From positions 28,460,001 through 28,524,000 of the forward strand of contig NC_087251.1 in assembly GCF_037042905.1 (NCBI RefSeq): DNA of 64,000 nucleotides. The letters run 5' to 3'. A program made the position numbers and the translations under genes. This document shows positions 33,601 through 51,622 of the stretch, piece after piece. The DNA comes from Lytechinus pictus (taxonomy: Eukaryota). Every line of letters starts with the position of its first letter. Positions within the stretch are counted from its first letter, which is position 1. The notes under the pieces are model-generated. The model was not told the origin of the DNA. It did not search any database and worked only from the letters and a program-made list of their open reading frames with translations.

Positions 33601-36600
33601 CAATGTATATACTTTTTTTTATTCATTCAGGCTGCCAAGGAGATTTTAGATAATGCCGAGCCTCTGCCACCAAGAGTAAGAGATGCGTCTATCAAGTTAG
33701 TTGAGCATATGGCAACTCAGCCTGATGAAACCCACCCAGTCAGCAAAGATATGCAGGAATCTCTGGATAGATACCACAGGTAAACTAAACAATCTTCAAA
33801 TTTGTAATTTTCTTACGCAAAAATCTGTGCTGCATCTTTTAACAGGAATCCCACTACAAAGACATAGCAGCTTTCCCTGTATTCTTCATTACATTGTCTC
33901 TGATGGAATGTGGGTATTGGTTATGAAAAGCCGCTTGCACTTGCAGGATTGCTGCAGAAAAGATGTGGCTTCGACTTTAGGCAAGGTGTATTAGTATAGA
34001 TACAACAGGTGCACAGCAGATTTCCATAACCGGCATTGTTTTGTCTATCTAAAAAATGAAAGATTAGAGTGCAAATCCATAAGATGTGTACATTCAACCC
34101 CCTACTGTGTATGTCTCCACTTGTGCGTCATATGAAAAAGTGTTATGCTCTCAAATTATCATCGCTTGGGTAATTTATGAAGTAAAGTAATGTGGAGAAC
34201 AATAGGGGTAGCATGTTGATAAGCTGATAATCTTATGGAACTCCTATCGAATAGAAATGCACCTGACTCATTGCATAATCCATTGAAAGTGCTTTTGTTT
34301 TTTCTTTGGAAGCCACCCCCCTCCCCTTTGTAGCCACCATAGTTTATAGTGTGCTCTGAAATCAAATTCGCCTATATTAACAAAATGTTGAAACATTTTG
34401 ATTTGTCAGGTTACATGACTCTGCAACTCAACTTGAAGAAAACATTGAGAAGGAGCTGTCTGAGAGGGCAGCATTCGAAACGGAGACTGAGGAAGCGTTA
34501 GCTGATCTTATACAAGGCAAAGAAACCCTGGAGGAACAGACTGCTAGTATTGGTCCTCTTGTTTCAGATGCAGAAGATAGAATTATGACACTTGAAGTAA
34601 GATTTGCTCTTCTCTATTTAAAAATGACTTCTTGTGCTGGAACTAATTTTAAATGACTTGGTTTGTGAGGATGAAAATTACTTTTATTTGGATCACTTTG
34701 CTGTTTATCTGAGTTTAGTAAATTGACTAAACAGGAAATATATGTGAGAGATATGTGTTTAAATAACTATTTTTTTACCAGGAAATAATGAATACTCCAA
34801 AGACCTTCATTACACATCTAAAACATTTTATAAAGTAAAGTACTTGGAATCATTAGAACTTAGATGCATTTTTAAAGTCATATCATTACTACAACATGTA
34901 TTTCCAGGTTTATCATTTACAATATTATGATTTTCCTAGTCTTTATTTGTCGACAACTTGTTATTCATTTACTTCAGGTTGTGAAATCAGAACTCCAGCC
35001 AAAACTGGCACATATTGACGAGCTGTGTAACACACAACATCAAAAGTACAATGACCTTCACTCAGTACCTCCATCTAGCATATCTGAGAAACTTGAAGAC
35101 CTTCAATCACAGAAGGCAGAGATGAACAGTAAACTAGACTCCACCATCCAGGAGTTGAATGAGGCTGAGAAGATCAGACGTCTATTCCAGCAACAGACAT
35201 TTGATGTGGAGGAGGTCATAGAAAGAGCTAAGGAACTGTTGAACAAACCTATCTCGGATGTTCCCAATGCCAAAAAGGAACATGAGGTAATTGCTCTCTC
35301 TTGTGTGTTTTTTTTTCACTGTTAGTGGTTTGTCTTGTATAAGTAAGTGTTTTACATTTATCCCTATTTTTTTCAGTTTGAATCTTGGATAAGTTTATAA
35401 TATAAACTTATATCATGTAATGCAATATGTGAGGTCGTATGTGTTTGATATTATGACCATGAATTAAATCTTTGGGCTTAATCTCTGTATCGGTTTCCAT
35501 TTAATCTTTGTCTAGACCTGTGTTATAAGGCCCTTAATAGTTGAAAGTAGTTGTTGCCAAAATTTAGACACAGAATACCTTGATAGATGATAAAGGGTAT
35601 TGCTATTTCTTTGGATGATTTTGTTAACTTACGAAATATATTTCTTGGTCTATCACCAATGACAGGATTTAAAGGAGTCTTTGAAGTCAGCTCAGTTAGT
35701 GATGCACTCTGTCCAGAACATTGCCCAGCAACTGACTGACCAGACCAACAAACCAGATGAACGTCGAGCTGTCATCGCTACCATTACATCCCTTCAGACC
35801 AATCTAGCAGAGGTCACCCACACAACTGACCAGATGACCGATGAACTGACCAAAGCTATCGAGCCATGGAAACAACACCTGAGTGCCAAGGAAGCTGTGG
35901 AAAGGTGGCTTGATCAAGGGGTTGATACAGTGAAGCCTACCTTGAATCTTGGTAGTATGCCCACAGTCCTGCGTCAACTACAGGAACACAGGGTCAGTGA
36001 AGCCACATTTTTCTTTCCTCTACCATATTTTAGATATTGTTTTAAAAGATGTATCGAGCTAGTTCATTGTAGTTAGCAGAGAAATTATTAGCTTAGTATA
36101 TGTTGCATTCTAATGATTTGTGATAAAATGCCTATACAAGAAAGAAGGAGCCACCTTTTGACTATGATATTTGTCGTTTAAAAACATATATTTCAATTTT
36201 GTAAATTTCTGTATTGGAATTGAAACAATATGTCTGAAAGTGCTTTTTTCTGCAGTGACATCAGAACAAAAATTCCAAATTATATCTTTAATTAATAATT
36301 ATTATCTGAAATTATTAGATTTCATTATTAATTTTTACAAACTTAGGCCTTACTAGAAGATGTGCCATACACAGTGGAAAATGTAGAAGCCTTGATGTCA
36401 TCAAGTCCTATTCTCGCCAGAGTTCTGAAGGACCCCACTCACCAGGCCAAAGCCGATGACCTGAAGAAACACTTCCAGGATATGATTGACACTGCCCAGG
36501 AACGCAAGGAAACACTGGAGGATGAGACAAGGAGATGGCAGAACTACCAGGGTGGTCTCATGGATCTGTTCCACAGGATTGCGGATGCCAAGGATATGAT

Positions 36601-39600
36601 GCTCTCACCAGACATGGAGCAAATGACGCTCAATCAACAGCTAGAAAATCAGAAGGTATTGCAACAGAAACTTACTAGGGGTCCATTTCATTTAAGAGTT
36701 ATAACTATGGTAACTTTGCCATTATGGAAACTTTGCTTCCGAAGACGACCACAACATCACTTTGATTGTAACAGGACTTGGCAGCCTATCAAAATCAAGA
36801 TTTCCCTTGTAGTTACAATAATGGCAGTTACCTTAGTTGTACTCTTCATGAAACGGGCACAAGGAGGAGAGCAGGATGGTGCTTTAATCATGTGATGACA
36901 AAAAGGAGGAAAAAGAAGAAATAAATGTAGAGAAGGGATGGCTTGATCATGTAACAAAGCAGTGCATATTTTTTTTATAAAAAGAAATACATTAATTCAC
37001 CTTTGGCTCATTTTGCCTCTTCACTCTAATGAAATACCCTGCTGACTCTTCTACAGGAAATGTTTCATAAATGTCTTGTCAGTGATTTTCCTGGACCAAT
37101 TTGCTCTCTGTCAATCAGATGTAAGGATTTCAATGGCTTTTAATGGTTTTCATTGAAAGTCATTGGGAAGACACACTATGAAATAATCCTGAGAAATTCC
37201 AGATAAATTCCATTTTTAAGATGTCAGTTTACTATTTCATTTCTAAATGATAGGAGGTTCTTGAGAAGTTAGAATCTGCCAGCAAGCGTCTAGCTGACCT
37301 GAACGATACCCACACACTCCTGGCCCCTAACTCATCCGATCAAACAAATGAGCTTGATGGTGATGAGGATGAGGATGATGACACCGAGAAGGAGATCAAA
37401 GATCCTCAGTTGTTAAGCTTACAGGAAAATATCTCCAGGATCAAGGATGTTGCTGTACAGCACGGTGAAGTCCTACAGAAATCTCTTGTGCAACAGGTCA
37501 GTGGTCCTCTACCTCTTTAAGATGAAAAGAAAATGAAATCAATCTCATATATCTGGCTCTAAATATTCAGGATCTACAGTTAATCTAAATGCGGGTAGAA
37601 GTATCTATGATGAATCAATTGATTACTCCATTGATTTGTCTTTGAATGGGGAGTTTCCGCTGTCTTCCATAGTGAATACTATTGTATGAAAGTTGGCAGT
37701 TCTGCATAATGTGTACTGTTATAGATTGACTGTTTGGCCCTAATTTATAAAGGAGGTTTAAACCTCATCCTAGCTCTTTTAAGCATGTGCACACACTGAA
37801 TATGATCAAATTGATTTTCTGTAAAGCCACATATCGATGGTATGCACTCATTCACATTCACTTTAATGCACTTTATGAGTATTGATGTTCTGTACCCTTT
37901 CAGGTTTAATATGAATTGGGACCTTTTTGATTATATCAAAATGTACATATAGAAAGGATTTGTTTTCCCGTCCTTTTGCAGGAAGCGTATGAGAAGCAGT
38001 TGGAAGTACTAGAAGTTAAGTTGCAGACAGCACAAGATGCAATGGCTTCACCGGTAGAACCTACAAGCATGGAACAACTCAAAAAACAAATAGCACAACA
38101 TAAGGTACATCTTGTATTTTGCTACTAGCAAAATTAACCATTTATGTTTGGTACCTGAGCACGTTGCAGATATCCTGATATGCAATCTGACATTAGTTCG
38201 ACTTTTGCACTTCACACTTGATAGATACTGCCATTCCATTTTTATTGGACAGAATATATATTGTGAAAAGTAGATTCAAGTGGTGGATATACTTCCTTTT
38301 TTCATATGAATTAGGTATTGGTGGATTAAATAATTCTCAAGGGATTTTGAATTTGAACATCACAGCAAATACAAACGAGATATTAATTGCGTTTAAATTG
38401 ATCTGATGTTGCCATTGTTGGAAAATATGTCTAAAACAAATATCTCACGCTTATTATTTTCAATTTTCATTTGTTTCAGGAACTTGCAGTGGAAATTCAA
38501 GGATATGAAGATGAGATTCAGGCCATCAATAACAAGACCCAAGAGCTCCAGGAGGAAGCAGCTAAGAGGACAGACTTCAGGCAGACATATCTTTCCACCC
38601 TCACCCCTCCTGGACCACCTATGGTCGCAACTCCAGAGTTTGGTGTTGGTGCTCGTTTAGTGAGGAGAGGTTCACCTATAAGAACTCCATGGAGATCATT
38701 TTCTCCAGAACCTATGCAGACTTCATCACCAGAATCAAAGAGGCCTCATGGTGATCTTGACCTCACTGAAGAGCAGCCTCCAGAGAAAAGGGTTCTTTTT
38801 TATGACGATCCTTCATTAGCAGAAGTACATTATGAATGCCCCAGAGATGAAGTTGACAGTTCACTGGTACCTCCCTCAATGTCAGGTAAAGACAGCAAAA
38901 TGTCAACAGAAGATATGTCAGAGTCACCTAAACAACCTTCAAAGAGATCTTTTGATGATAGCGAACATGAACAGTCACCTAAAATACTTGCCACATCTAC
39001 ACCTAGACCAGGTTCTGCTGACAAACATTTGGATGATTCAGATCCTGAAAAGACTATCTCGTCCAAAGGGTCATCAGACCCTTCTAAACAGGTACCATTT
39101 CAAATTATCACTGACAGGGGGCCTGCATTTGTTCTTCGCCCGGCAGGCTCCAGTTCCATAATTGGACAACCCGGAGAGGATGGAGATGCACCCGGTGGAG
39201 GTGATCATCAAACCCAATATGTCATACAGCAAGCCACACCATATCTTTCTCCTGTTGTTGTTCAGAGGGTGCCCATTACAGAAAGTATTTCACCAATGAT
39301 GGTCATTGATCCAAAAACAGGCAAGACCATGGAGGCTGTACCAACTGACAATGTGGATGATATAGAGAATAAAATAACAGCTTATATGGTTGACCCTGAA
39401 ACAAAAGAATTGGAAATACTTGATCCTGAAAATAAAGTAGCAGTTGTGGCAAAACCTTGTGAAAGTCCAGAGAACGTTCCTTTAGATGAAGTTGTTGTTC
39501 CATTAAAAGTCAAACCTGTAGAATTGGCTCCAGATTTGATGAAGAGTTTTCATACCTCTGGGCCTTATGATCTTGATAGGTACAAGGACCTTGAAGGTAC

Positions 39601-42600
39601 TGATGGTGACAAAGGACAAGCTTCTGTTCAGAGACTGAAAGAGGAAGGTGATGTTGATGGAGGAACAATAGCTGATAGTGCTCATGGAAGTAAAACACTT
39701 CATGTAGGCTTACCTACCAGAGCCCCAACAAAAGACATGATATTGTCACTACCTTCTGATAAAGGACCAGCTGATGTTCGGATTCCTACAGAGCGTGATG
39801 ATACAGATAGTGCTAAAGTATTTGACAATATTGAGAGTGCCAAAGAACCAGCTAACATTCAAAGTGTTAAGAAGGGTTATCAGCCTAGTCTGAACATCGG
39901 GCAACAAGAGGAACAAGATATATCTAAAGAGCCTTCAAGGGACTTACCAGTTACTCAGACATATAGTGGGGAGCAGCCATTGCTCCCATATATGGATGAT
40001 ATGGATGCAGAAATATCCGAATTAGGAAAAAGTAGTAAGAAACCAGTTACTGATCTGCACCAATTGGTAACCACCAAAGGACCTGCATATGAATTGCGAC
40101 CTCTTGACTCAGACTCTAAACCTTCAAATCGTGGAACAGATGGTCTCTCATTTGGAGCCTCTTCAGCAGACCCTGTACCTAAACAGTACACTGTCTCAAA
40201 GACGACTCACTTTGATGGTGTTCCTGAAGTGGTTGGTCATGCTCCTGTGCTCAAGGACCAACGTCCTACACTAATCAAAGACCCATCATCAGACCAGATC
40301 TTAGAAGCTGTTCCTATAGTTGATCCTAATGATTTGAAGAATAAGGTCACCGCATATGTACAGTCTGATCCACAAACAAACACCTTAGAAATTATTGATC
40401 CTCAGCAGGGGCAATCTTATGTGGCCAATGCTGTAGATCCTGAGCAGTTTGATGACAGCACTTCACATTTGACCATGTTGGATGAAGATAAACCAGCTCT
40501 TCAGCTTGAAACAAATAAAGGGCTTGCATATGTATTACATCCACTGAATGAGGAAAAATCACCCATGAAAGACATCTATCCTGCAGGAAAGAAACCTGAA
40601 CAGAAGAATGCTGAATTCACCATTGTTGATGAAGCAAGACCAGCAAATACTGTTCTTGTTACAGGTTCAAGAACATCACCTGGCATCAAGCCAATAGAGA
40701 TCATTGATGAAGTTTCAGGGCAGAAATTTGTTGCAGAACCTGCTACTAATGTTAATGATCTGATGAGCAAGCCCGCACTTTACCTGCCAAAGACAGCATA
40801 TAAGGTCAAATCGGTGGTGATATCTCATCCTGAGACAAAAACAGAAATAGTTGCAATTCCAGCATCAGACCAAAGTGAGAACGACCAACCATCAAATCTT
40901 GGAAGTAGTAATCTTCTTGGTCCAGAAAGAGACCAAACATTCATGAATATTCCTAGTGCTATCACCTTAAAATCAATGAATGTTCCTGTTGTAGATCATC
41001 AATTTGGCCATCCTGATCCAATCAGTAAAGCATCAGCAGTTGTAAGAGAACCCATTACTCATCAAATTGTAACTGATCATGGGCCAGCATATACCCTCAG
41101 GCCTCTTACTGCCGTTGGTGGCCCAGCAGCAGGTGATGATGATCCAGATGTGGATTTTGTCCTAGCCAGCCAAGGACAAACAGATGAACCTCCTGTTGTC
41201 ACTGGGGAACAAGAGCTTGATTCGCTGATTCAACCAATACATATTAAAGATCCAGAATCTGGCCAAGTTATGGTTGCTGAACCCATGACAGATATGAATA
41301 ACCTCAGTGGAGTGCTTGCTGTGATTGATAGTCTTGATGGTAACCCTCAAATGACCATCTATAATCCTACAACAAAGAAGTCTGGTGTAGCACTGCCAAC
41401 AGAGCAATATTGCCCTCCTTCACCAGGAGTGACCCCTTACTTCAAGGAGGATTCAGATTTGACTCCTGATGAATTGGTAACAAAACCAGTTAGCGAAGTT
41501 GGCGAAGTTCTACAACAAAAACCTGTTACTTCAGGACAACAGATTCCAGCACAAGATGTGAATAAGCCTGTGAGGATTGATGATGCCAGAGGCAATATAC
41601 AGGACGGTGACAGCAGCGATGAATCTCCCCATGAAAGAAAAGATTCTGGATGTCCCTTGTTTTCACTGTGTCCTGTTGAATCAACTCCTAAATTAGATTA
41701 TAGGTTAGAGCCATCTCCTGGTGCAATTAATGTTAATGAGAAACATTCAACTGAACATCCTCTTTCATATCTTCATGATGGTTCTGATAAATTTGAAGAA
41801 TTATTGGGTAAGCCTGCTTCCAATCAGGTTTTGACATCGCTCGGACCTGCATACTTCTTGACCCCAGTTGAATCATGTGGAGACAGCAAATTGCAGTCTA
41901 AAGATAATGACAGTGTACCTCTCCTTGTTACAGATCCAAAGCCACTGAACACCCTTCCAGTGGTTGTTGGATGTGAACCATTTCAAAATGGAGGTTTCTT
42001 TGTTGAGGATCCAGTGTCTAAGAATACATTCAAAGCAGAGCCAGTTCACAGCCTAGATGTTTTACATAGTAAACCAACTGTCTTTGTAGATGATCCAAGT
42101 AAACCCGTTCAGATCCATTTTCCAGATGCATCGGTTATACCACCAAATACAAATGCTGATGAAGATGGAGTAAAGAAACTTCAGTCAGATAATTTCCTCA
42201 CTCCATCTCAAACTCCTTCAGGAAAGTCACTTCAACCTGAGTGGGTAAATCAAGACAATGCAGGGCCAGGCAGAGAAGAAAGGGACACACTTTGTCAAAC
42301 AGAACTGGACCATTCCATGCTAGTAGAAGACATGGATAGTGTATTGACTATTGACAGTGGAGCTGATGAGGCAGATAGAGCTCTTGTTCCTCAACCATCA
42401 AAGAAAAACATTCTACCAGGGAAGGTCAAGCATCAACTCATCACTGATATTGGTCCTGCCTTTATCCTTGTTCCTGAAGACAAGTTAGGAAATGGGGGAG
42501 ATGGGGGTGGAGGATCCTCCACTCCTGATGAGTACATATTAGCCACATCTTCAGACCCAGCAAATAAGCCATCAGTGATCGGTTCAAAGCCATTTTCACA

Positions 42601-45600
42601 GAAGGAACCATTTGTGGTCAAGAATCCCAGCACTGGGGAAACTTTCAGGGCTCTCCCTGCAGAAAGCCTCCAAGACCTTCATGAAAATCCATCTCTGTAT
42701 GCCATTGACTCACAAGATGTTCCAAAGGTGAAAGTTTTTGATCCTTCAACTGGCTGCGCATCTGTAGGATTTGGATCAAGGGCACCAGAAGTTAGAACCT
42801 TGTCACCATTATCAGAATTGAATGAAACTCAACCAGTTTCACAGCTTTTGACTAATAAGGGACCAGCGTATGTAATGCATCCATTTGCTGGGGAAGGTTC
42901 AGGTGTGCAAAGTGTCTTATCTAGAGGGAGGATACCTGAACCAGAGAGCACAGATTACACTATTGTTAATGAAGCAAGACCAGCTAATCCGGCTGTTGTG
43001 ACAGGCTCAAGAATGTCAAGTAACATCAAGCCGATAATGATTCTAGATGAAGCCTCAGGGCAGAAATTTGTTGCAGAACCTGCTACTAATGTTAGTGATC
43101 TGATGAGCAAGCCCACACTTTACTGGCCTGAGACGACAGATGTATACAAACCAATGCTGATATTCCATCCTGAGACTAGAACAGAAATAGTTGCACTTCC
43201 GACATCTTGCCCAAGTGAACTTGACAAAAATCAAAATTTTGAAAGTACTAACCTACCCATTACAGGGTCTGCTGTTGAACGAGATGGAGACCAGTCTTCT
43301 AGGGATATACCAAGTGTTATTACCTTGAAAGGTAATAACCAGACTGATAGCCAGACTGATCCAAACAGTCTCTCTGATATATTCCAGAAACCAACTATTT
43401 CACCATCAGAAAGGTTAAATAAACCTGAACGGATAGAAGAAGATTATAACAGGACACCCAACATCGGAAAGGACGCGCCTCATCATATGGGACTACACAG
43501 TTCTGTGACAACATGTGAAATGGATAGCATGTCAGATGACAGTGATGTTGATGAGGAATTTGATGGTCTTGTTCCTCAACTATCAAAGATAAACACGCTC
43601 CCAGGGAAAGTCAGGCATCAGCTAGTCACTGATATTGGTCCAGCCTATACCCTTGTGCCTGAAGACAACTTAAAAAGTGGGAGAGATTGTAGTGGAGGAT
43701 CCTCCACTCCTGATGAGTACATATTAACAGCATCTTCAGACCCAGCAATTAAGCCATCAGTGATTGGTTCAAAACCATTTACACAAGAGGAAAAATGTAT
43801 TGTAAGGAATCCCAGCACGGGAGAAGCCTTCATGGCTGTCCCTGCAGAAAGCCTCCAAGATATTAATGAGAATCCATCTTTGTATGTGCTTGATTCACAA
43901 GATGGTCCGTCGGTGAAGGTCTATGATCCTTCAACTGGCTATGCGTCTACAGCATTTGCGACTACTTTACCAGAAGTGATTGTTACTCCGGAATCACCCC
44001 AGCTAGATAAAATTAGGCCAGTTCCACAGCTGATAACAAATAAAGGACCTGCCTATGTGCTGCAACCTCTCTCTGAAGATACTACAACTCCTCAAGATCT
44101 ATCATCTATTGGGAAGAAACCAGAACATGAGAATGCAGAGTACAAAATTGCAGATGAAGCAAGACCAGCAAATGCTGCTGTTGTGACAGGATCAAGAACT
44201 TCAGCTGGAATCAAGCCAATAGAGATTCTGGATGAAGTTTCAGGACAGAAATTTGTTGCAGAACCTGCCACTAATGTCAATGATCTGATGAGCAAACCCA
44301 CACTTTATCTGCCAGAGGCAGCTGATCTGTCTAAGCCAGTGGTGATTTTCCATCCTAAAGCAAGTACTGAAATAGTTGCATTTCCAACTACACCTCAACC
44401 AAGTGAATTTTCTAAACAACCATTATTTGAAAGCACGTTCCATCCCGATTCTGAGGGTGTTATGGCCCCACGAGATCAGTCTCTAGGTGATATTCCAAGT
44501 GCCATCACCTTGAAATCAATGAATGTTCCTGTTGCAGATCATCAATATAGCCAGCCTGATCCAAACAGTCAAATAACACAAGACATGACAGAACCCATCA
44601 CTCACCAAGTTGTCACTGATCATGGACCAGCATATACCCTGAGACCATTCCCTGAATTTGGGGGACCAGCAGCAGGTGATGATGATCCAGATGTAGATTT
44701 TGTCCTTGCCAGCCAAGGCCAATCGGAAGAGCCTCCTTTAGTGATCGGGGAACAGGAACTGGAATCCCCCATCCAGTCTTTGCATGTTAAAGATCCTGAA
44801 TCTGGTCAAGTTATGGTTGCAGAACCCATGACTGATGTCAATGACCTTACTGGCGTGATGGCCATTGTTGGTAGTGATGATGGTAACCCACAAATGACTA
44901 TCTATAATCCTGCAACAAAGCAGACTGGAGTGGCTGTGCCAGCAGAGCTATATCATCAACCTTCATCAAGAGGAGGTCCTTCCTCCCATGATGATTCAGG
45001 AGTAACTGTGGATAAATCAGTACCAAAGCCATCGACATCAGACCAACAATCTCCTACGCAAGCTGAAAGGGACCCTGCCAAGAGAATGGATGATTCTCCA
45101 AACAAACTCAGCAGTGGTGAATCCACTGATATAGCTTTACATGAAGAAGGTGAATCTGATCCCAAATCAGCAGTTTGTCCCTTGTTTTCACCCATTCCTA
45201 CTAAAATGAATGCATTGGAGTCACCTGCACAGCATAATGTAGCCCCTGAGGATTTGGCTCATGGAAAAGATGAACCTGGTAAACCTGCCTCCATTCAGAT
45301 TTTAACATCCCTCGGACCTGCATATGCCTTGACACCAGTCGAGGAGCTGGTTGAAGCTGGCAAAGTACATTCACCAAGTGACAGGGGACAGCCCAAGAAA
45401 AATGACAAGGCAGATGCTATGCCCTGTATCTTAGCAGATACAGAGCCTCTGAACAATCTTCCAATGGTTGTCGGATCAAGACCAGCACCAGAGGTGAAAA
45501 GTTTCCTCATTGAGGACCCTGTCTCTCAAAAGACATTCAAAGCAGAGCCAGTTCACAGCTTAGATGTTTTACACAATCAGCCAACTGTATTTGTTGTTGA

Positions 45601-48600
45601 TACAAGTAAACCTATTCAGATTCATTTCCCAGATTCATCATCAACAACGCCAAATAAAAACACCAATGGAGATAGGAAAGAGGGATCTCTTTCAGATATT
45701 TTCCAGATACCAACTGAGATTCCATTAGAGAGGTCACTTCAATCAGAAGAGGATATAAAGTTTTATGAAGATGAGTCTAGGGAAGGAGATGAAAGATCTC
45801 ATCAAAGACCTCATTCCACCTTACTGATGCAAAAGAGACACAGTTTATCTAGTGACGACAGTGATGCTAATGAGGAATGTCTTGTTCCTGATCCTCATTC
45901 ATCAAAGCGAAAGGTTGTTCCAGAAATTGTCAAGCATCAGCTCGTCACCGATTTAGGTCCAGCCTATATCCTAGTACCAGAAGACAGTGTTGGATATGGG
46001 GGAGATGGAGGTGGAGGATCCACTTCCCCAGATGAGTACATTCTAGCCACATCTTCGAATCCAGCCAACATGCCATCTGTTATTGGTTCACAGCCATTGT
46101 CACACAACCATCCATGCATTGTCAGGAATCCCACAACAGGAGAGACTTTCAAGGCTGTACCAGCAGAGAGCGTCAAAGATCTGAATGAAAATCCATCTCT
46201 GTATGCCATTGATTCCAAAGATATCCCTGCAGTGAAGGTGTTTGATCCCTCAACCGGTTGTGCATCTATTGGAGTTTCAGAAAGTGTACCAGAAATTGAG
46301 GAACTTGTGAGTGAATCAAGATTAAAACCAGATAAGACACCACTGACATTCAGTTTTCCAGCTACTGAGCCTGCAGTTGACAAGCGCACTAATCAGAATG
46401 ATCAGCAATATGACAGTAATAATGCTCCTCGTCAGTCTCCCGGTGTAAGCGGTGATAGATTATTTCCAGAGAAGAATAGACAAGAAGATGACTCCACTCA
46501 CTCTGATGATGATGTATTTGAGATTGACAAACCAGAACCCTTAGAGCCAAGTGATGAATCAAATTGGGATACTCATACTGCCACAGATGTACCATTTTTA
46601 CTTGGCTGGATGGAAAAGGAAAACAAGAAACCTATACCAGAATCTCAGCTGGATTCCGCATCAGTTACTGCAGGAACTCCTCGATCAGTGCCACCAGTAG
46701 AGCAAATCCTCACTGACAGAGGTGCTGCATATGTTTTGACTCCTGTATCAGAGTTAAATGATCATGGTGGTGCTGCTATTAGTGGATTAGGGGTGACTGG
46801 TGCAACTCCTGGTGCTGGAAGTTCAACTCTTGCCACATCGCCAGACTATATCATTGTAGAGGATACAGAATTGAAGAGATTACCAGTTTTAACGGGCACT
46901 CAGCAAACAAGAGATGTAGCTCCTTTTTTCGTCAGAGATCCAAAGACAGGTCAAGACCTAGCTGCTATTCCAGCCACAGAGCCAGATGACCTGCAAGGTC
47001 TTGTTGGATTTACAGATGATCCTAAGGATGATCCCTTGATGATACAAGATATGCAAACCGGGGAATCGATGATTGCACTTCCAGCATACCGGATCCCTGA
47101 TGAACTAGGACAGGCTCAGTCACTCCCACCCAGGGATTCAGGCTTTTACTCGGGACCAAGCAGTATGGCAGTTACTGATGCAACATTGAAGGATACTACT
47201 GATTCAGATGATAGTTCGGTAGATTCTCTTCCTCACCATTCCAAATCAGACATACCACATTCATCTGAATATGCTGAAGTGCCACTGAAGAATTTACCAA
47301 GCATAGAGGATGTTCCAGATGAACACTATCACACTGATTCCACTGACTTTTACACTCCTGATGGATCACCAGTTCCATGGCAGGCAAAACACAAATCAGC
47401 TCCACAAGATCTTGACCTTCAAGTCTCATTGCCAGATGAACGTAAATATGAACCCGTTGTTTCTGCTGCTGATCTCCTAGATCAAACACTGCAGATTCAA
47501 CCTGTTGTAGTTTTGCAGAAGGATTCATCACCCACTGAAGAGACTCCCGGTTTGATGGAAAAGGATAACCATCAAGGCACAACTAATAAAAGTCCTGCAG
47601 AAGCTAAAGACACATCTTCAAAAACAGTGAATGCTTCTGCAGATGATGAGCCAAAAACATTGTCACAGGATATGCCACTTCCTGTTATATGCCATGAGGG
47701 CTTGATGGGAGATGTGAAGGATCCTTCTGCACCAGATGGTAAAGCACAGAAGATAGACCAACTCAATCGCTCATGGGATGCTCTACAACATAAGGTAAAT
47801 TTGATTAAACTGCAAATTTAATATATGAATAAATTAAGTTAACTTTATAGCAAATATAAAATTGTAAGTTTGTGTAAAGGAAAACAAGACTTTGAACTAT
47901 TTTGGAAAGTTTACAGCACTATCATGCATTCTTTGGTTTTAAAAGTTTTGCCAGTAATATGATTGATATTACAGTATGTCAATGAACTTGTGACAGTTTT
48001 TGATACTTGCATTGAATGTTTGGTTTTCCATCAAAGTTTAGAATAAATATGCCATTAAGATTAAGTATTCTTTGACAATCCTTGGTGGAATGAGAATAAT
48101 GGATCATAGTTATAAAATGGTGATGGACCTTACTGAGGTATTATTGTGGGTTCAAAAGTTTTTGGTCTTACCAGCTGGTCAAATAGCAAATAAATTTCTG
48201 TAAAATTACTACTCAGATTGATAAATTTGCAATGATATTTGGCGCATTTGCAACCAAACTATGTTGGTAGGTTCTCTCAGTCACCACATTTTAATGTTTT
48301 TCAGGTTCAAAGAGCACCATGAAATCAATTTAGAATAAATTAACATTACTGAGAATAAGTGTTTGCAAAAGGCGATACACATTTTTTCTTTCCCATGTAT
48401 GTTTTATGTTATATAGATGGAGGAGAAGGAGCGTCTCCTGAAAGAGGCTTTAGCCAAGCAGGAGGATTACCAGAATGCCTTGTCTCAGATCAACATTCGA
48501 CTTGCTAACACGGAAGCTCATCTCAAAGAGATCAAAGACACTCCCATGGAGGCTCGTAACCTTGATGAACATATCCTAGAACTCAAGGTTGGCATATTTC

Positions 48601-50808
48601 ATTGGCTTTCATCTACTTGGTAAAAATCTATTTCCCAGACTTGGGGCATTTCATCAACATTTGGTGTTTGACTAGTAGTCAGACCTGACAACGTTCCCGA
48701 TTTTGATTGGCTTAGAAGCACAGGTGTCAACCTGTAACTATGGTTACTGTCGGATAAAACATACCTTGTTAGATAAAACATCTGACAAGAGCTGTCATGA
48801 AACACTCCCATTATCACCTTTCCTACCCTAACCTACTCAGTTCCCCATTACATAATCTGATAACTTTGCCAAGGTGATTTAATGGAATCCCTGTTTTTGA
48901 AGGCTGCTTTTATGTTACCACAGTTACTAAGTTATGATCATAGTAATATTATAGGCCTATACAATATTGCTCTATTTCATTATCAGTAGAACTCAATGCT
49001 GATGGTCCAACCATTACTATGACTAATTCGCACGAGCTTCCAGATTCCCCAAAATCTTATGACTGTGGTAAAAATGTCTGTAAAGCACTTTCAGGTGTTG
49101 TCCTTATGTAATAAGGTATATGTAAATGTGGAATTATCATCCATGTCATAAACTGGAGTTTGAATGCAGAATGTTGTTATGTTTTCATTGTAGAATCTGA
49201 TAAGCGAATGCAGTGATTTAGATGAGAATGTGAGCATGGTTGAAGAAAAAGCCACAAGGTTGAAGATTCCCCAGGACACAGTCCGAGAAACAATAGATGA
49301 TCTCAGGAATAGAGTGGATAAGATCAAGACTGATGCAAGTGCGCTTCTCAAGAAGTTACAGGTAGGAAGCCAAGACTCAATTTCATCCTACTCAAGTTTC
49401 ATCTGTTTTCTTCCTGAATAATGTGTAGCAAGGTTATATGCAATCACTCTCTGTTATATGTAGATGTTGTAGTAGTAGACTTTTGGGTCTAACTTCTTTA
49501 GCTTGGGGCTAGTCTGCCACAAAATCAGAAATCCAAGTAGATTTCTATGATGCTGAAGTAAATTTTTTTTTCTGAATATAATCATGTTCGAATTTTAGAT
49601 TATGATTATTTTGTTAGTCTTTTTCTTCCCTACAGCATTTATTTTTTTTGCAAACATCAATGTAGTTGAGGATTATTCTGATAAGAATAATTAACTCCTA
49701 TTTTCCTATTTTAAACATTATGTTTTCTAAGTTTGTTACTTTTCATTTACATTTGTTTTGTAGAAAGAGAAAGAAGATGAAATGCTTGTGAAGGTTAAAC
49801 TGGAGGTAAATCAGCAAGAATTGCAACATCTTGATGATTGGTTGACTGACTTCAACAAACAGCTTGAACCAGATGAAGAGTTAGAGAGTGGTGATGAGGA
49901 ATTAAGTGCTTCGGACATTCAGGAAAAACTCCTTCAAAATCATGTAAGAAATCTCTTAAGGTTTTTAAGTTTCTTGTCATTTTATCATCAGTTTGGAGTA
50001 TTCCACTTTTTTTTTCCATGGAACTCATTTTTCCAGGAAGGTCTTTTAAGCCTTTTCAATTTGGACATGTACTATACAATCCCTTATCATGATATTATAT
50101 ACTCTAACCACATTTTTCCTTGGGACCCAGTGAAAATCTTAGGTCATTTGGAATCCTGATTTATTAAGAAAAAAATAAATGGAATCATCAATCTGAACTG
50201 AGCCCTGTCTCACAAAGAACTGTGATAGATTCAATTCAGTCGTAAACTGAGATGATGGAAATTGTGTAGGGTAAGAGTTTTATATCAATTGCAATTAAGG
50301 TTTATTTATCACAAGACCATGTAAAACAGGGACCTGGAATTTTAAGCAGTTTCCTTTTGATTGACATTACGTAGCATAGAACCATTTCTCCACATCCTGT
50401 CTGGTTATCACTGACAGTTTCCTCTTTCTTCACATCCAGAATCACCAGTTGGAGTTGAGTCGCAAGCTCCAGAAACTGAACAACATTGAAGAGAGCATTG
50501 AGCAGACCCTGGATGCAGCCACCTGTCAGATACCGGTCCTGGCAGAGCACCTTGACACCACCGTACGGCACCTTCACAACCGCATGGATACCTGTAAGAG
50601 AAACCTGGCAGACCAGAGGGAACACCTTAAGATGCTGCTGAACACCGAGCGGCTGGCTCAGGAGTACCAGAGCGATGTGGCCAAGCTCCAGGATTGGCTG
50701 GAGCAGCATAGAGGCTTGATGTCAGCACCGGAGGGAGGAGTGACTAGCAAGTTGCCGCCTGTGGAAGTTGGAGCTGAGATGCTGCAGCAGCAGGCTGAAC
50801 TACAACAG
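527..50808 (+). CDS. SYNE1: Internal part of a giant spectrin-repeat protein gene, nesprin-1/MSP300-like (45 exons, 6,257 codons in window; both ends outside the window)
   Basis: Chain of AG/GT-bounded exons with matching phases encoding helical repeats of about 107-109 aa with conserved W (WL/WM) and a recurring T(S/T)xxGQxxI motif. The flanks of the giant exon resemble vertebrate nesprin-1 as I recall it. The symbol is an inferred orthology, not a search result. Confidence 0.8.
1321..1476 (+). CDS. exon 2 (CIQQDIQRH...EKDCQ)
   Basis: ttttcag / CAG|gtgagt; 156 nt, phase 0-0. Confidence 0.9.
2349..2513 (+). CDS. exon 3 (DCACKQSDM...IITFK)
   Basis: gaacag / AAG|gttctg; 165 nt, phase 0-0. Confidence 0.85.
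3598..3924 (+). CDS. exon 4 (DLQTEKAAC...LKKFK)
   Basis: gctttag / AAG|gtatca; 327 nt, one repeat long. Confidence 0.9.
4446..4601 (+). CDS. exon 5 (AVHDELADQ...LLKTK)
   Basis: tttttaag / AAG|gtaaga; 156 nt. Confidence 0.9.
5162..5314 (+). CDS. exon 6 (DAVKVSEHM...STQLK)
   Basis: ctaaag / AAG|gtaaat; 153 nt. Confidence 0.85.
5599..5781 (+). CDS. exon 7 (ELQKCESIG...LQDFQ)
   Basis: ttttacag / CAG|gtatga; 183 nt. Confidence 0.9.
6331..6471 (+). CDS. exon 8 (ACLALWDQA...VDHCK)
   Basis: atacag / AAG|gtgaga; 141 nt. Confidence 0.9.
7115..7267 (+). CDS. exon 9 (RIEGTVNEK...QQRCQ)
   Basis: aatcag / CAG|gtgaga; 153 nt. Confidence 0.85.
7882..8200 (+). CDS. exon 10 (DNVILAETR...SALND)
   Basis: tttttcag / ATG|gtgaga; 319 nt, phase 0-1. 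Confidence 0.9.
8564..8736 (+). CDS. exon 11 (DVKGVQTLL...MENDK)
   Basis: cttttag / AAG|gtaaat; 173 nt, phase 1-0. Confidence 0.9.
8753..9230. mobile_element. Non-autonomous TIR DNA transposon (PIF/Harbinger-like MITE), short copy
   Basis: 22-bp TIRs aggtggtttcaaaccgcctcga and tcgaggcggtctgaaaccacct (1 mismatch); same family as 23102-23946 in the opposite orientation. Confidence 0.85.
9646..9801 (+). CDS. exon 12 (KFLAEVRSK...LQNAQ)
   Basis: ctacag / CAG|gtcagt; 156 nt. Confidence 0.9.
10193..10357 (+). CDS. exon 13 (DVVKRSEED...LDALK)
   Basis: atatag / AAG|gtaggt; 165 nt. Confidence 0.9.
10769..11095 (+). CDS. exon 14 (PVLDSMNDV...LEKRK)
   Basis: ccttcag / AAG|gtttgt; 327 nt. Confidence 0.9.
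11749..11904 (+). CDS. exon 15 (ALEREIIAH...LKKAQ), absent from the ORF track
   Basis: atacag / CAG|gtaagg; 156 nt, open frame, helical content. Confidence 0.9.
12808..12981 (+). CDS. exon 16 (TTCSELASN...LAKQQ)
   Basis: ccttgcag / CAG|gttagc; 174 nt. Confidence 0.9.
14506..14805. mobile_element. MITE; degenerate relative at about 11980-12275
   Basis: 20-bp TIR tattctgaagtggggtttaa and ttaaacccgacttcagaata (1 mismatch); both copies share ccatggtct...ctaaaattatg and aaaccagagtt. Confidence 0.7.
15002..15158. mobile_element. Short MITE family (gggcc.gtttcat...atgaaac.g.cc); close relative at 36678-36860, looser relatives at about 48640-48810 and 61385-61507
   Basis: Inverted termini; tatggtaactttg shared between the 15002 and 36678 copies. 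Confidence 0.6.
15422..15775 (+). CDS. exon 17 (SLMRELATC...VEVLK)
   Basis: Weak acceptor catcag with a ctgactaat branch-like motif; AAG|gtgatt; 354 nt. Confidence 0.8.
17137..17274 (+). CDS. exon 18 (GILDTSLMH...QIIEQ)
   Basis: atgtag / CAG|gtaatt; 138 nt. Confidence 0.8.
17688..17864 (+). CDS. exon 19 (TESQLGQTE...LKNAN)
   Basis: accttag / AAT|gtaagt; 177 nt. Confidence 0.9.
18264..18449. mobile_element. Small TIR element (hAT-like ends) inserted in an older degenerate repeat
   Basis: Perfect 12-bp TIR caggggtgtgag / ctcacacccctg; flanks atagaa / atagat; internal tttcag repeats. Confidence 0.65.
18659..18955 (+). CDS. exon 20 (SFIDDIQTH...IETLE)
   Basis: cactag / GAG|gtgagt; 297 nt. Confidence 0.9.
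20601..20877 (+). repeat. 78-bp direct duplication (20601-20678 and 20800-20877)
   Basis: Copies identical except for one c/t difference. Confidence 0.9.
21350..22375 (+). CDS. Candidate alternative first coding exon: N-myristoylation motif MGSEQS followed by about 8 short internal repeats (342 aa)
   Basis: Over 1 kb of open frame inside an AT-rich intron; gctATGg context; ends at AGG|gttagt in phase 0, matching exon 21; repeat consensus NPGN..YTVKP.VD.HGRPSR.S. Confidence 0.7.
23102..23946. mobile_element. Longer copy of the same TIR element with a Myb/SANT-like (trihelix) coding remnant
   Basis: Same TIRs and subterminal sequence; internal MTSLWSEEATKALISMWRE at 23574-23630. Confidence 0.85.
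24378..24490 (+). CDS. exon 21 (RLSMPERRR...IRKQL)
   Basis: (CT)n tract then cctacag; ACA|gtgagt; 113 nt, phase 0-2. Confidence 0.9.
24557..24683 (+). mobile_element. SINE/L2-like 3' tail remnant
   Basis: gtaaagcactt...taagcactatag followed by a (TAT/CAT)n tail; similar tails near 2135-2230, 11480-11530 and 28110-28160. Confidence 0.4.
24995..25202 (+). CDS. exon 22 (HEIREEWLS...LQQIQ)
   Basis: ccacag / CAG|gtacat; 208 nt, phase 2-0. Confidence 0.9.
25591..25791 (+). CDS. exon 23 (DSSVELAGR...VNERK)
   Basis: aacgcag / AAG|gtaaga; 201 nt. Confidence 0.9.
25830..26250 (-). mobile_element. Degenerate SINE-like remnants; similar pieces at about 780-970 and 61930-62060
   Basis: Motifs such as tacccatttacc, tcttgctgaagga and ccaaaggacac resemble reverse-oriented tRNA-derived SINE cores; recognised from memory only. 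Confidence 0.4.
26290..26412 (+). CDS. exon 24 (EFWKYYSDC...VFEAK)
   Basis: gtgcag / AAG|gtaaga; 123 nt. Confidence 0.9.
27005..27125 (+). CDS. exon 25 (ALQDQVKSY...QQKVR)
   Basis: tttatag / GAG|gtaaga; 121 nt, phase 0-1. Confidence 0.9.
27665..27870 (+). CDS. exon 26 (DLEKTFQKA...ISQHK)
   Basis: cctcag / AAG|gtaata; 206 nt, phase 1-0. Confidence 0.9.
28323..28465 (+). CDS. exon 27 (NVNDSSVSQ...QALFN)
   Basis: ttccag / TAG|gtaaga; 143 nt, phase 0-2. Confidence 0.9.
28749..28935 (+). CDS. exon 28 (RTVDSTGEK...ISTCK)
   Basis: aaacag / AAG|gtaagc; 187 nt, phase 2-0. Confidence 0.9.
30030..30335 (+). CDS. exon 29 (DLQARLDNL...LHKCK)
   Basis: cttacag / AAG|gtattt; 306 nt. Confidence 0.9.
30795..31121 (+). 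CDS. exon 30 (IALEEIICL...FTRHQ)
   Basis: caccag / CAG|gtaaaa; 327 nt. Confidence 0.9.
31669..31992 (+). CDS. exon 31 (TNQPKMNHT...LHQHR)
   Basis: atacag / AGG|gtatgt; 324 nt. Confidence 0.88.
32445..32765 (+). CDS. exon 32 (QFFSREPVY...KQLNK)
   Basis: cttaaag / AAA|gtaaga; 321 nt. Confidence 0.88.
33141..33467 (+). CDS. exon 33 (EIENILQSQ...LASVK)
   Basis: ttttttag / AAG|gtatgt; 327 nt. Confidence 0.9.
33631..33779 (+). CDS. exon 34 (AAKEILDNA...LDRYH)
   Basis: cattcag / CAG|gtaaac; 149 nt, phase 0-2. Confidence 0.9.
34410..34596 (+). CDS. exon 35 (RLHDSATQL...IMTLE)
   Basis: ttgtcag / GAA|gtaaga; 187 nt, phase 2-0. Confidence 0.9.
34978..35286 (+). CDS. exon 36 (VVKSELQPK...KKEHE)
   Basis: acttcag / GAG|gtaatt; 309 nt. 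Confidence 0.9.
35666..35992 (+). CDS. exon 37 (DLKESLKSA...LQEHR)
   Basis: tgacag / AGG|gtcagt; 327 nt. Confidence 0.9.
36347..36655 (+). CDS. exon 38 (ALLEDVPYT...LENQK)
   Basis: acttag / AAG|gtattg; 309 nt. Confidence 0.9.
37254..37496 (+). CDS. exon 39 (EVLEKLESA...SLVQQ) with an acidic DGDEDEDDD loop; absent from the ORF track
   Basis: tgatag / CAG|gtcagt; 243 nt, open frame. Confidence 0.88.
37982..38104 (+). CDS. exon 40 (EAYEKQLEV...IAQHK); absent from the ORF track
   Basis: ccttttgcag / AAG|gtacat; 123 nt. Confidence 0.9.
38480..47794 (+). CDS. exon 41: giant 9,315-nt exon (3,105 aa) with spectrin helices at both ends and 13 copies of an unrecognised ~110-aa repeat between acidic S/P/D-rich linkers
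   Basis: tttgtttcag acceptor, AAG|gtaaat donor, phase 0-0; uninterrupted 3,116-codon ORF in the track. Confidence 0.92.
48417..48587 (+). CDS. exon 42 (MEEKERLLK...ILELK)
   Basis: atatag / AAG|gttggc; 171 nt. Confidence 0.9.
49194..49361 (+). CDS. exon 43 (NLISECSDL...LKKLQ)
   Basis: ttgtag / CAG|gtagga; 168 nt. Confidence 0.9.
49764..49943 (+). CDS. exon 44 (KEKEDEMLV...LLQNH)
   Basis: tttgtag / CAT|gtaaga; 180 nt. Confidence 0.9.
50440..50808 (+). CDS. exon 45 (NHQLELSRK...AELQQ), followed by an intron of over 13 kb running off the window
   Basis: catccag / CAG|gtgagt; 369 nt, phase 0-0. Confidence 0.9.
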
Positions 50809-50946
50809 GTGAGTCAGATTGTATTTCACCAACTGTTATTGTGGTATATTAATAAATGTTTTATCCACATCTTCCCAGTAAGCAGGATTTTGATGTGATA
50901 TTGCTTGGTGGAGGACCTGCTAAAACCTGTGGCTAAGAGTACTTAA

Positions 50947-51622
50947 CCCTAAGGGGACTGGGCTATTTGAAATGTATTGAGCTCGGGGGGGGGGGGGGGG
51001 GTAGGGGGGCATGATGGGACCCCTTCTGATCTTGCCCGTCGTTCGTGCAATTGCACCGAAATATGGCACGCACATTTTTTATGAATAAAATATGCAAATT
51101 TATTAATGAAAAACATTGTTTGCATATTGAACACCAAATTTTCATCTTTTTTTTCCAAATGTCATCTTTGTAATCTTGTTTAAAGGATTCCGCAAAGAAA
51201 GATTGCAAAATTCAAATTTTTCCTAATGTATTTCTTTGTTTTCAGAATTTCTTATGTATTTTTTTTCATCTTTTGTTTTCATTGTTTTTTTTTCAATTGA
51301 AATTATTAAACCATTTAACAACTGAATTAAATCATTAATTAATTAAGTAGACCAATTAGAATAAAAATAATCATCCTTTTATGAATTGCATCTCCCATAT
51401 ACATGAAGTATAAAAATTAGCCATTTTGGGCTTAACATTCTCTTATAAAAAGTCATGTGGTGTCGCGATGCTGTACCGGTATGTCGTGAATTTGGTCTCA
51501 AAAGTTACGCAAGATTTCAAAGAAAAAAGTCATTAATTTTTGTGGCGCTATCTTTTCGCAGTCCGGAAATATTGCACAAAGCATTGAGGGGGGGCATAAT
51601 GGTTCCCCCAGTCCTTTTAGGG
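50947..51622. mobile_element. piggyBac-like non-autonomous element
   Basis: TTAA|ccctaaggggactggg ... cccagtccttttaggg|TTAA; 16-bp TIR with 2 mismatches and a TTAA target duplication. Confidence 0.75.

Follow-up and report, generated by a model that had tools for sequence, protein, structure and literature searches.

The nucleus is tied to the cytoskeleton by giant nesprins, whose length and repetitiveness call for an explanation. Titin, a giant cytoskeletal tether, carries Ig/FN3 arrays together with a PEVK spring and is encoded partly by very large exons. Work on worms and flies has pointed to the central repeat regions of such proteins, rather than their CH or KASH ends, as functionally critical, according to the cited sections of both reports (PMC8139857, PMC11230431). 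In Caenorhabditis elegans ANC-1, six tandem repeats of 903 residues are reported to be required for nuclear and organelle anchorage (PMC8139857), and the Drosophila isoforms Msp300-PE/PG are described as carrying about 20 copies of a Type 1 repeat of 108 amino acids (aa) and 19 copies of a Type 2 repeat of 101 aa, the repeat types of Msp300-PE being Drosophila-only, negatively charged, and beta-rich (PMC11230431). Here we describe a giant exon of a nesprin locus in the sea urchin Lytechinus pictus, which encodes 13 diverged copies of a unit predicted to fold as an all-beta module. The exon lies in a stretch of 64,000 nucleotides (nt), hereafter the window, which corresponds to C7:28460001-28524000 (+ strand) of an 812-Mb assembly and to which all positions below refer unless a chromosome is named.

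This array belongs to a known kind of structure, namely lineage-specific tandem-repeat regions in the middle of giant KASH proteins, and its module is a third, apparently unrelated type beside the fly and worm repeats. The first-pass annotation of this DNA, made from the sequence alone, had held that giant exons were not known with such a motif. The motif itself is indeed undescribed, whereas the phenomenon is less unprecedented than that reading implied, given the analogous beta repeats of Msp300 (PMC11230431). As in the cited sections on Msp300, tens of tandem units of about 100 aa are encoded by a very large nesprin coding region and are lineage-restricted, and in both cases the units are predicted to be beta-rich with disordered loops, carry a net negative charge, and had no previously described function (PMC11230431). 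No similarity between the two was detected, as judged by the five named matches of the profile search described below, none of which is from Drosophila. In addition, the fly repeats are reported to be highly similar to one another, unlike the Lytechinus units with their 25-34% identity to unit 1, and Msp300-PE is reported to have neither CH nor KASH and only two spectrin repeats (PMC11230431), whereas the giant exon is spliced to spectrin-like exons on both sides at a locus with both CH and KASH.

The ANC-1 repeats are likewise lineage-specific, tandem, and central in a giant KASH protein, but they are described as near-identical in nucleotides and predicted to be helical and spectrin-like (PMC8139857), whereas the Lytechinus units are old, about 115-140 aa long, and predicted to be all-beta. 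Vertebrate nesprin-1 and -2 giant (SYNE1/SYNE2) share with this locus the N-terminal CH, the long spectrin rod, and the C-terminal KASH; they have more than 50 spectrin repeats and, as far as we are aware and the cited sections of the worm report indicate, no beta-domain array (PMC8139857). No vertebrate protein is among the five named of the 15 profile matches. The likeness to titin is one of functional analogy only, in that tandem beta modules alternate with acidic or proline-rich disordered segments in a giant tether; the Lytechinus units differ in having neither an Ig/fn3 Pfam match nor an Ig/FN3 structural match above noise.

The giant exon and its host gene

The giant exon (Table 1) is enclosed by a stop-free + strand frame of 3,128 codons (38435-47821), one of only two frames of at least 150 aa within 36000-50000, and is bordered by an acceptor (...tttcag/GAA, AG at 38478-38479) and a donor (AAG/gtaaat at 47795). 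RNA evidence was drawn from two stranded raw RNA-seq runs of the same organism, X19 and X20 (about 6% of each read), and from contigs of two further runs, X1 and X2, all over 35500-51200. Both X19 and X20 cover every bin of the giant exon, at 0.2-4.8x, with the first mate nearly always on the - strand, which is the orientation expected for + strand RNA in most stranded libraries; cover is just 0.04-0.13x in a bin lying wholly inside the downstream intron (48600-49123). The entry joint 38104>38480 (GT..AG) is crossed by three reads of X19, four reads of X20, and the X1 and X2 contigs, and the exit joint 47794>48417 by three reads of X19 and the X1 and X2 contigs, with no read in X20. In these contigs, eight successive GT..AG introns are spliced out around the giant exon, and all eight exons are open in frame 0 with lengths divisible by three, the last piece, from 50440, being measured to 50808, where the contigs leave the examined stretch. 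The giant exon is thus transcribed and spliced as one exon, and the coordinates given for it in the first-pass annotation are exact, with both borders present in spliced RNA reads. The exon-skipping joint 38104>48417 is not among the listed joints, a depth of 0.2-5 leaving room for a minor skipped isoform.

Three further features of the RNA data concern the same exon. The depth of the X1 and X2 contigs, itself a poor measure, climbs from about 2.6-8 at the 5' end to about 16-25 at the 3' end and up to 30 downstream, which would fit either 3' bias or shorter 3' isoforms that begin within the array or past it. At 44775, four X19 reads and one X1 contig depart from the exon and continue at C13:29070468-29070497 (-), with a 10-nt microhomology (cccccatcca) common to both places. 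An internal splice donor was considered and rejected, given the continuation on another chromosome and the microhomology, and the departure is probably a template-switch or assembly chimera, the alternative being a polymorphic rearrangement. Compared with the window, contigs of both X1 and X2 lack 6 nt in frame at 43463, within the linker that follows unit 7.

Judged by its sequence, the locus is a giant nesprin gene of about 180 kb with a CH-spectrin-KASH layout, and by this architecture it is an ordinary giant nesprin. The sole KASH (PF10541) match of the genome lies on the same strand 91 kb downstream of the giant exon (C7:28598853-28599026, +; E 5.4e-26, 100.5 bits vs a cut-off of 23), and one of the 27 CH (PF00307) matches of the genome lies on the same strand 79 kb upstream (C7:28419529-28419723, +; E 8e-8, 41.6 bits vs a cut-off of 26). 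Within the window, 15 of the 40 + strand open reading frames (ORFs) match Spectrin (9) and/or Spectrin_SYNE1 (8), with E 5e-6 to 0.04 and all under the curated cut-offs because single exons hold only fragments of a repeat. Around the array, five collinear tblastn matches (Table 1) to the rod of Holothuria leucospilota 'Nesprin-1' (KAJ8045888.1, 7,825 aa; P0017) support orthology. The Holothuria protein has an N-terminus that is CH-like, judged by eye, and carries 13 units of the same family at aa 4609 to 6491, that is, in the same place of the rod. The proposal that the array sits inside a nesprin rod is hence borne out by the same-strand CH and KASH matches and the collinear Holothuria protein, together with flanking spectrin matches that stay sub-threshold.

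The repeated unit, its relatives, and its predicted fold

A regular expression for the GPAY core finds all 13 units within the giant exon, and a unit profile recovers the same 13 with domain E-values of 1e-35 to 3e-49 (Table 1). Each core lies 18 nt past the repeat start listed in the first-pass annotation, because those starts were counted from the Q of QxxTxxGPAY. Units are about 115-140 aa in size and, among those aligned, share 25-34% identity with unit 1. Their signature is Q..T..GPAY.L.P ... P.V.G ... DP.(S/T)G....A.P ... L ... P.(T), with an internal low-complexity G/D/S loop. The consensus proposed at first pass held well: Q5, T8, G11, A13, P18, A83, and P85 are invariant in 13 of 13 units, and in a wider set of 82 units from 11 proteins their conservation is 80-90%, with Q5 and T8 at 90%. 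The consensus of these 82 units reads ....QlvTDkGPAYvLrPl (variable loop) dyv.s...pl..lPvVtG.r.vp...Pl.V.DP.TGe.mvAePA.dpedL...ptayv.D....kP.kIydP.tg....A.P., in which conservation is 80-90% at the G, P, D, T, A, and Q written in capitals.

Between the units are linkers of 8-188 aa, and the array is framed by end segments of 203 and 228 aa. As had been proposed, the linkers are acidic: they are rich in S, D, E, and P, with a net charge of -8.9 per 100 residues and 22% hydrophobic residues, as compared with -6.5 per 100 residues and 28% for the units. No significant extra copy was found with the unit profile in linkers of at least 40 aa or in the two end segments (best E 0.08). The string SDKGPADVRIP, previously reported near 39750 as a decayed half-motif, does exist (39755-39787) but scores only E 0.26-0.67 against the profile, and its reading as a decayed unit was rejected. 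A subdivision of each unit into three or four 'h.h.DP.TG....A.P' hairpin sub-repeats was not supported either, hhalign self-comparison having given a single off-diagonal match of 17 columns (E 0.31).

Two short motifs flank the array. Ahead of unit 1, G(V/I)xAxL(V/M)RR(G/S)S is aligned in all four orthologous N-flanks (P0001, P0002, P0004, and P0017) and resembles what we take to be a basophilic-kinase site, and directly after the last unit DSGF is found in all three sequences holding that region (P0001, P0003, and P0017), in a context, DSGF(x)(x)S, that presumably resembles a DSGxxS phosphodegron. A third string, FYTPD.GSP (about 47320-47350), is common to P0001 and P0003.

A HMMER profile search of 1.84 billion representative proteins returned 15 matches at E 0.001 or better, 12 of which are credible relatives, all resembling pieces of the giant exon. 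For instance, P0004 opens with the same helix and RRGSP motif, and P0003 closes with the same K(I/L)D(E/Q)LN(K/R)SWD helix. The other three, the FN3-repeat proteins P0014 and P0015 and the compositionally odd P0016, were rejected as spurious, since less than a third of the profile was matched many times over. Five of the 15 matches bear names, and these are all sea-cucumber nesprin-1, from Holothuria leucospilota or Apostichopus japonicus, in keeping with the lineage-specific insert first proposed. Word-index searches for homologues found only P0002, P0003, and P0004, over length bands shorter than full-length nesprins. Searching the Lytechinus pictus genome with unit 6 gave 12 matches, every one inside the giant exon; in this genome the unit is confined to one exon.

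Known families gave almost nothing. For the whole exon product, Pfam returned no family at E up to 1, and for the 13 units taken singly at E up to 10 it returned just DUF3472 and DUF4452, each in one of 13; Spectrin (PF00435), the signature of a three-helix repeat some 106 aa long, was absent from the exon product and from all 13 units in these scans. Against PDB sequences, phmmer found nothing and a profile search gave one chance row (E 1.6). Literature searches outside subscription journals gave no description of this repeat in an echinoderm nesprin. As far as profile comparison reaches, the module is a previously undescribed family, absent from Pfam, although sequences of array proteins can already be had from the automatically annotated genomes of sea cucumbers. 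Its absence from Pfam means that about 3,000 residues per protein are left undescribed by genome annotation.

AlphaFold2 was run twice on shallow alignments, once with unit 1 as query and the 13-unit alignment (model 1), and once with unit 10 as query and an alignment of 19 rows, six proteins of other species among them (model 2). The predicted local distance difference test score (pLDDT) was 77.6 for model 1 and 76.6 for model 2, and the predicted template modelling score (pTM) was 0.69 and 0.64, respectively. Both models have nine strands and one helix of 5-6 residues in identical order, the elements of model 1 being E4-8, E11-18, E42-50, E57-62, E70-74, E79-85, H89-94, E97-102, E107-112, and E117-123, with a disordered loop at 21-39. 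The unit is thus predicted to be a compact all-beta module, in agreement with the beta-rich module suggested from the sequence at first pass. Foldseek against PDB gave no match at E 0.001 or better for either model, VIA-align no structural neighbour, and ESM Atlas no usable match, which, with secondary structure that is confidently predicted, makes the module a candidate new fold without a PDB neighbour. The first-pass author could not assign the domain to a known family, and neither could we by Pfam, PDB sequences, or these three structural routes; taken together, the array shows no strong match to a known domain and no predicted disorder across its units, and it is present in transcripts.

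Constraint on the array and its proposed role

Several units fall into subtypes, A (units 6, 8, and 12), B (3, 7, and 9), C (4 and 10), and D (5 and 11), which form a higher-order repeat with about 60-74% identity within a subtype. The array was assembled by local duplication of segments, and these duplications are old because the duplicated DNA blocks, of 415-1,019 nt, are only 72-75% identical. The ratio of non-synonymous to synonymous substitution rates (Ka/Ks) is 0.21-0.57 between paralogous units (8 pairs) and 0.55-0.71 between the linkers that follow them (4 comparisons). Among the 34 best-supported exonic variants of the RNA data, 161 further variants lying outside that count, synonymous changes account for 18 (6 of the 9 that lie in units and 12 of the 25 in linkers).

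Unit number varies between proteins, with 13 in the giant exon, 13 in P0017, at least 16 in P0004, and at least 30 in P0003. In P0003 most linkers measure 0-30 aa, and in P0017 they measure 2-27 aa, so what the arrays conserve is the modules and not long linkers. A FastTree phylogeny of the 82 units contains lineage-specific bursts (P0003 units 1-19, support 0.76; P0004 units 3-9, support 0.81), a first-unit clade with sea cucumber (0.93), and D-subtype orthology with a close relative, P0005 (1.0). Supports for subtype orthology with the sea cucumber are otherwise weak (0.07-0.45), and a claim of deep subtype orthology across lineages was dropped.

What kind of module this is can be read in several ways. 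That it is a diverged member of a known beta family (Ig/FN3-like, SH3-like barrel, propeller-blade-like meander, or plakin repeat) appears improbable. Among the weak rows of the structural searches, Ig V domains, propeller blades, and SH3-like integrase or Tudor domains predominate, and the FN3-repeat proteins at the weak end of the profile search, P0014 and P0015, match at profile positions 65-103 and 72-88 in many stretches; on the other side, at E up to 10 none of the 13 units matches an fn3/Ig Pfam family. The plakin repeat is a 38-aa motif made of a beta-hairpin plus two helices, and we take the DP.TG hairpin motif of the unit to recall this hairpin; with E up to 10, plakin PF00681 is absent from the Pfam matches of every unit, and the predicted units contain hardly any helix. 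We consider it quite improbable that the units do not fold independently, being instead beta-prone and largely disordered, over-predicted by AlphaFold2, and nothing but a flexible charged spacer: a motif pattern of about 115 residues is conserved across lineages at only about 25% identity, Ka/Ks of the units is below that of the linkers, the order of secondary structure came out alike in both runs despite their different query units, and a pTM of 0.64-0.69 indicates a defined relative arrangement. A further proposal, which we regard as possible although on the unlikely side, is that the module is both a new fold and a new family, one of echinoderm origin or dating from early ambulacrarians, whose copies multiplied separately in each class within the nesprin rod. 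If so, giant KASH proteins would repeatedly and convergently acquire central arrays of lineage-specific modules, implying a general need for such arrays, either for tunable length or elasticity or for multivalent organisation of the perinuclear cytoskeleton.

As a whole, the observations are probably best explained by an undescribed array of beta modules in a giant nesprin exon, together with a spacer or spring mechanism. In this mechanism, which by itself we put forward only tentatively and by analogy, the array would be a compliant segment that adds length and is placed in series with the stiff rod of spectrin repeats. A stretch of this three-helix rod would give way to beta beads joined by acidic strings rich in S, P, D, and E, and the tether from the actin-binding N-terminus to the KASH anchor would be longer as a result. 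The roughly 1,400 acidic linker residues, presumed disordered, could supply entropic elasticity, while the folded modules would be rigid beads, possibly unfolding under load, in analogy with the Ig/PEVK design of titin. The scaffold or elastic insert suggested at first pass is likewise a candidate role. Alternatively, and we think rather unlikely, each module would bind the same partner, e.g. a cytoskeletal or microtubule-organising factor, so that the array, as a docking platform, concentrates it along the length of the tether or in the surroundings of the nucleus, a role also put forward for Msp300-PE. Such docking would fit the strong conservation of polar positions across deeply diverged units (Q5 and T8 at 90%, DP.(S/T)G, and A.P), the copy numbers of 13 to at least 30 between lineages, as expected if valency is tuned, and the Msp300-PE precedent, an isoform reported to be needed for bringing shot and Patronin to the nuclear surface (PMC11230431). 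However, a partner for the module is hypothetical, no Drosophila protein is among the five named matches and no sequence tie to the fly repeats was detected, and the fold alone explains most of the conserved residues. These are chiefly Gly, Pro, Asp, and Thr where turns are predicted, along with alternating hydrophobics, a pattern that suggests selection for a fold rather than for a catalytic or ligand site. The spacer is favoured over docking because conserved positions are typical turn and core residues and copy number drifts freely.

Several points nevertheless weigh against the spacer array as we describe it. Its proposed mechanism is drawn from analogy, and the length of the acidic linkers is not conserved (short in P0017 and in most of P0003), which weakens the entropic spring as a family-wide property. 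Exons linked by reads reach only from 35664 to 50808, and the presence of CH, array, and KASH on a single transcript is presumed from the layout of the locus. Finally, the fly isoform with the Msp300 repeats reportedly organises a microtubule centre around the nucleus, which favours docking (PMC11230431).

With an echinoderm array as a third, unrelated type of module, convergent selection on arrays of this sort would become more credible. Deletion of the giant exon should spare the rest of the protein because its length is a multiple of three, and this in-frame exon, combined with the optically clear embryos of echinoderms, would offer a tractable system for studying array function.

Feature coordinates and neighbouring observations

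Table 1. Exons, repeat units, flanking motifs, and matches to Holothuria Nesprin-1 (P0017), in window coordinates
Feature	Position	Strand	Details
Giant coding exon	38480..47794	+	9,315 nt = 3,105 codons; intron phase 0 on both sides
Upstream exons	36347-36655; 37254-37496	+	contig joints, frame 0
Upstream helical (spectrin-like) exon	37982..38104	+	123 nt, frame 0; joints 37496>37982, 38104>38480
Downstream helical (spectrin-like) exon	48417..48587	+	171 nt, frame 0; joints 47794>48417, 48587>49194
Further downstream exons	49194-49361; 49764-49943; 50440 onward	+	contig joints
Basic motif RRGSP, ahead of unit 1	38663..38677	+	within FGVGARLVRRGSP; alignment of orthologous N-flanks
Unit 1	39089..39484	+	GPAY core 39119; profile E 4.9e-45; query of AlphaFold2 model 1
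Unit 2	40049..40459	+	GPAY core 40079; profile E 2.4e-43
Unit 3, subtype B	40490..40891	+	GPAY core 40520; profile E 5.5e-45; paralogue of units 7 and 9
Unit 4, subtype C	41051..41437	+	GPAY core 41081; profile E 1.3e-41; 74% aa identity with unit 10, Ka/Ks 0.21
Unit 5, subtype D	41813..42163	+	GPAY core 41843; profile E 1.1e-35; paralogue of unit 11
Unit 6, subtype A	42422..42805	+	GPAY core 42452; profile E 8.8e-49; query of own-genome search
Unit 7, subtype B	42830..43231	+	GPAY core 42860; profile E 2.7e-49
Unit 8, subtype A	43607..43990	+	GPAY core 43637; profile E 2.6e-46
Unit 9, subtype B	44015..44416	+	GPAY core 44045; profile E 1.1e-47
Unit 10, subtype C	44594..44977	+	GPAY core 44624; profile E 8.2e-41; query of AlphaFold2 model 2
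Unit 11, subtype D	45284..45676	+	GPAY core 45314; profile E 6.5e-41
Unit 12, subtype A	45926..46309	+	GPAY core 45956; profile E 2e-48
Unit 13, last	46691..47110	+	GPAY core 46721; profile E 1.3e-39
DSGFYS motif, directly after last unit	47135..47152	+	flank alignment
P0017 aa 3096-3158	25606-25791		tblastn
P0017 aa 3628-3730	31666-31974		tblastn
P0017 aa 4277-4395	36350-36706		tblastn
P0017 aa 4417-4450	37395-37496		tblastn
P0017 aa 6783-6926	50437-50880		tblastn

Elsewhere in the window, a second long open frame of 369 codons (21296-22402, +) lies in a locally GC-richer stretch. It encodes about 6-7 copies of a repeated motif of about 30-40 aa, (H/Q)HGRPSR(T/I)S(L/F)..., and an internal MGSEQS, which we take to resemble an N-myristoylation start. 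This frame has no Pfam match and no tblastn match to Holothuria Nesprin-1, and may be another large nesprin exon or an alternative first one. At the window edge, inside a nesprin intron, a - strand ORF (2-349) reads ...YKSLVVPILEYGQPVWH...IESIQRRATR... and is presumably the C-terminal part of a retrotransposon reverse transcriptase. Within the intron that follows the exon at 36347-36655, RNA cover at 36690-36990 has the first mate on the + strand, with loose read ends on both sides of 36695-36725, a fixed T>C at 36702, and A/T-rich loose read ends at 36967-36989, a pattern suggestive of either a repeat element or a transcript that is antisense or unrelated.

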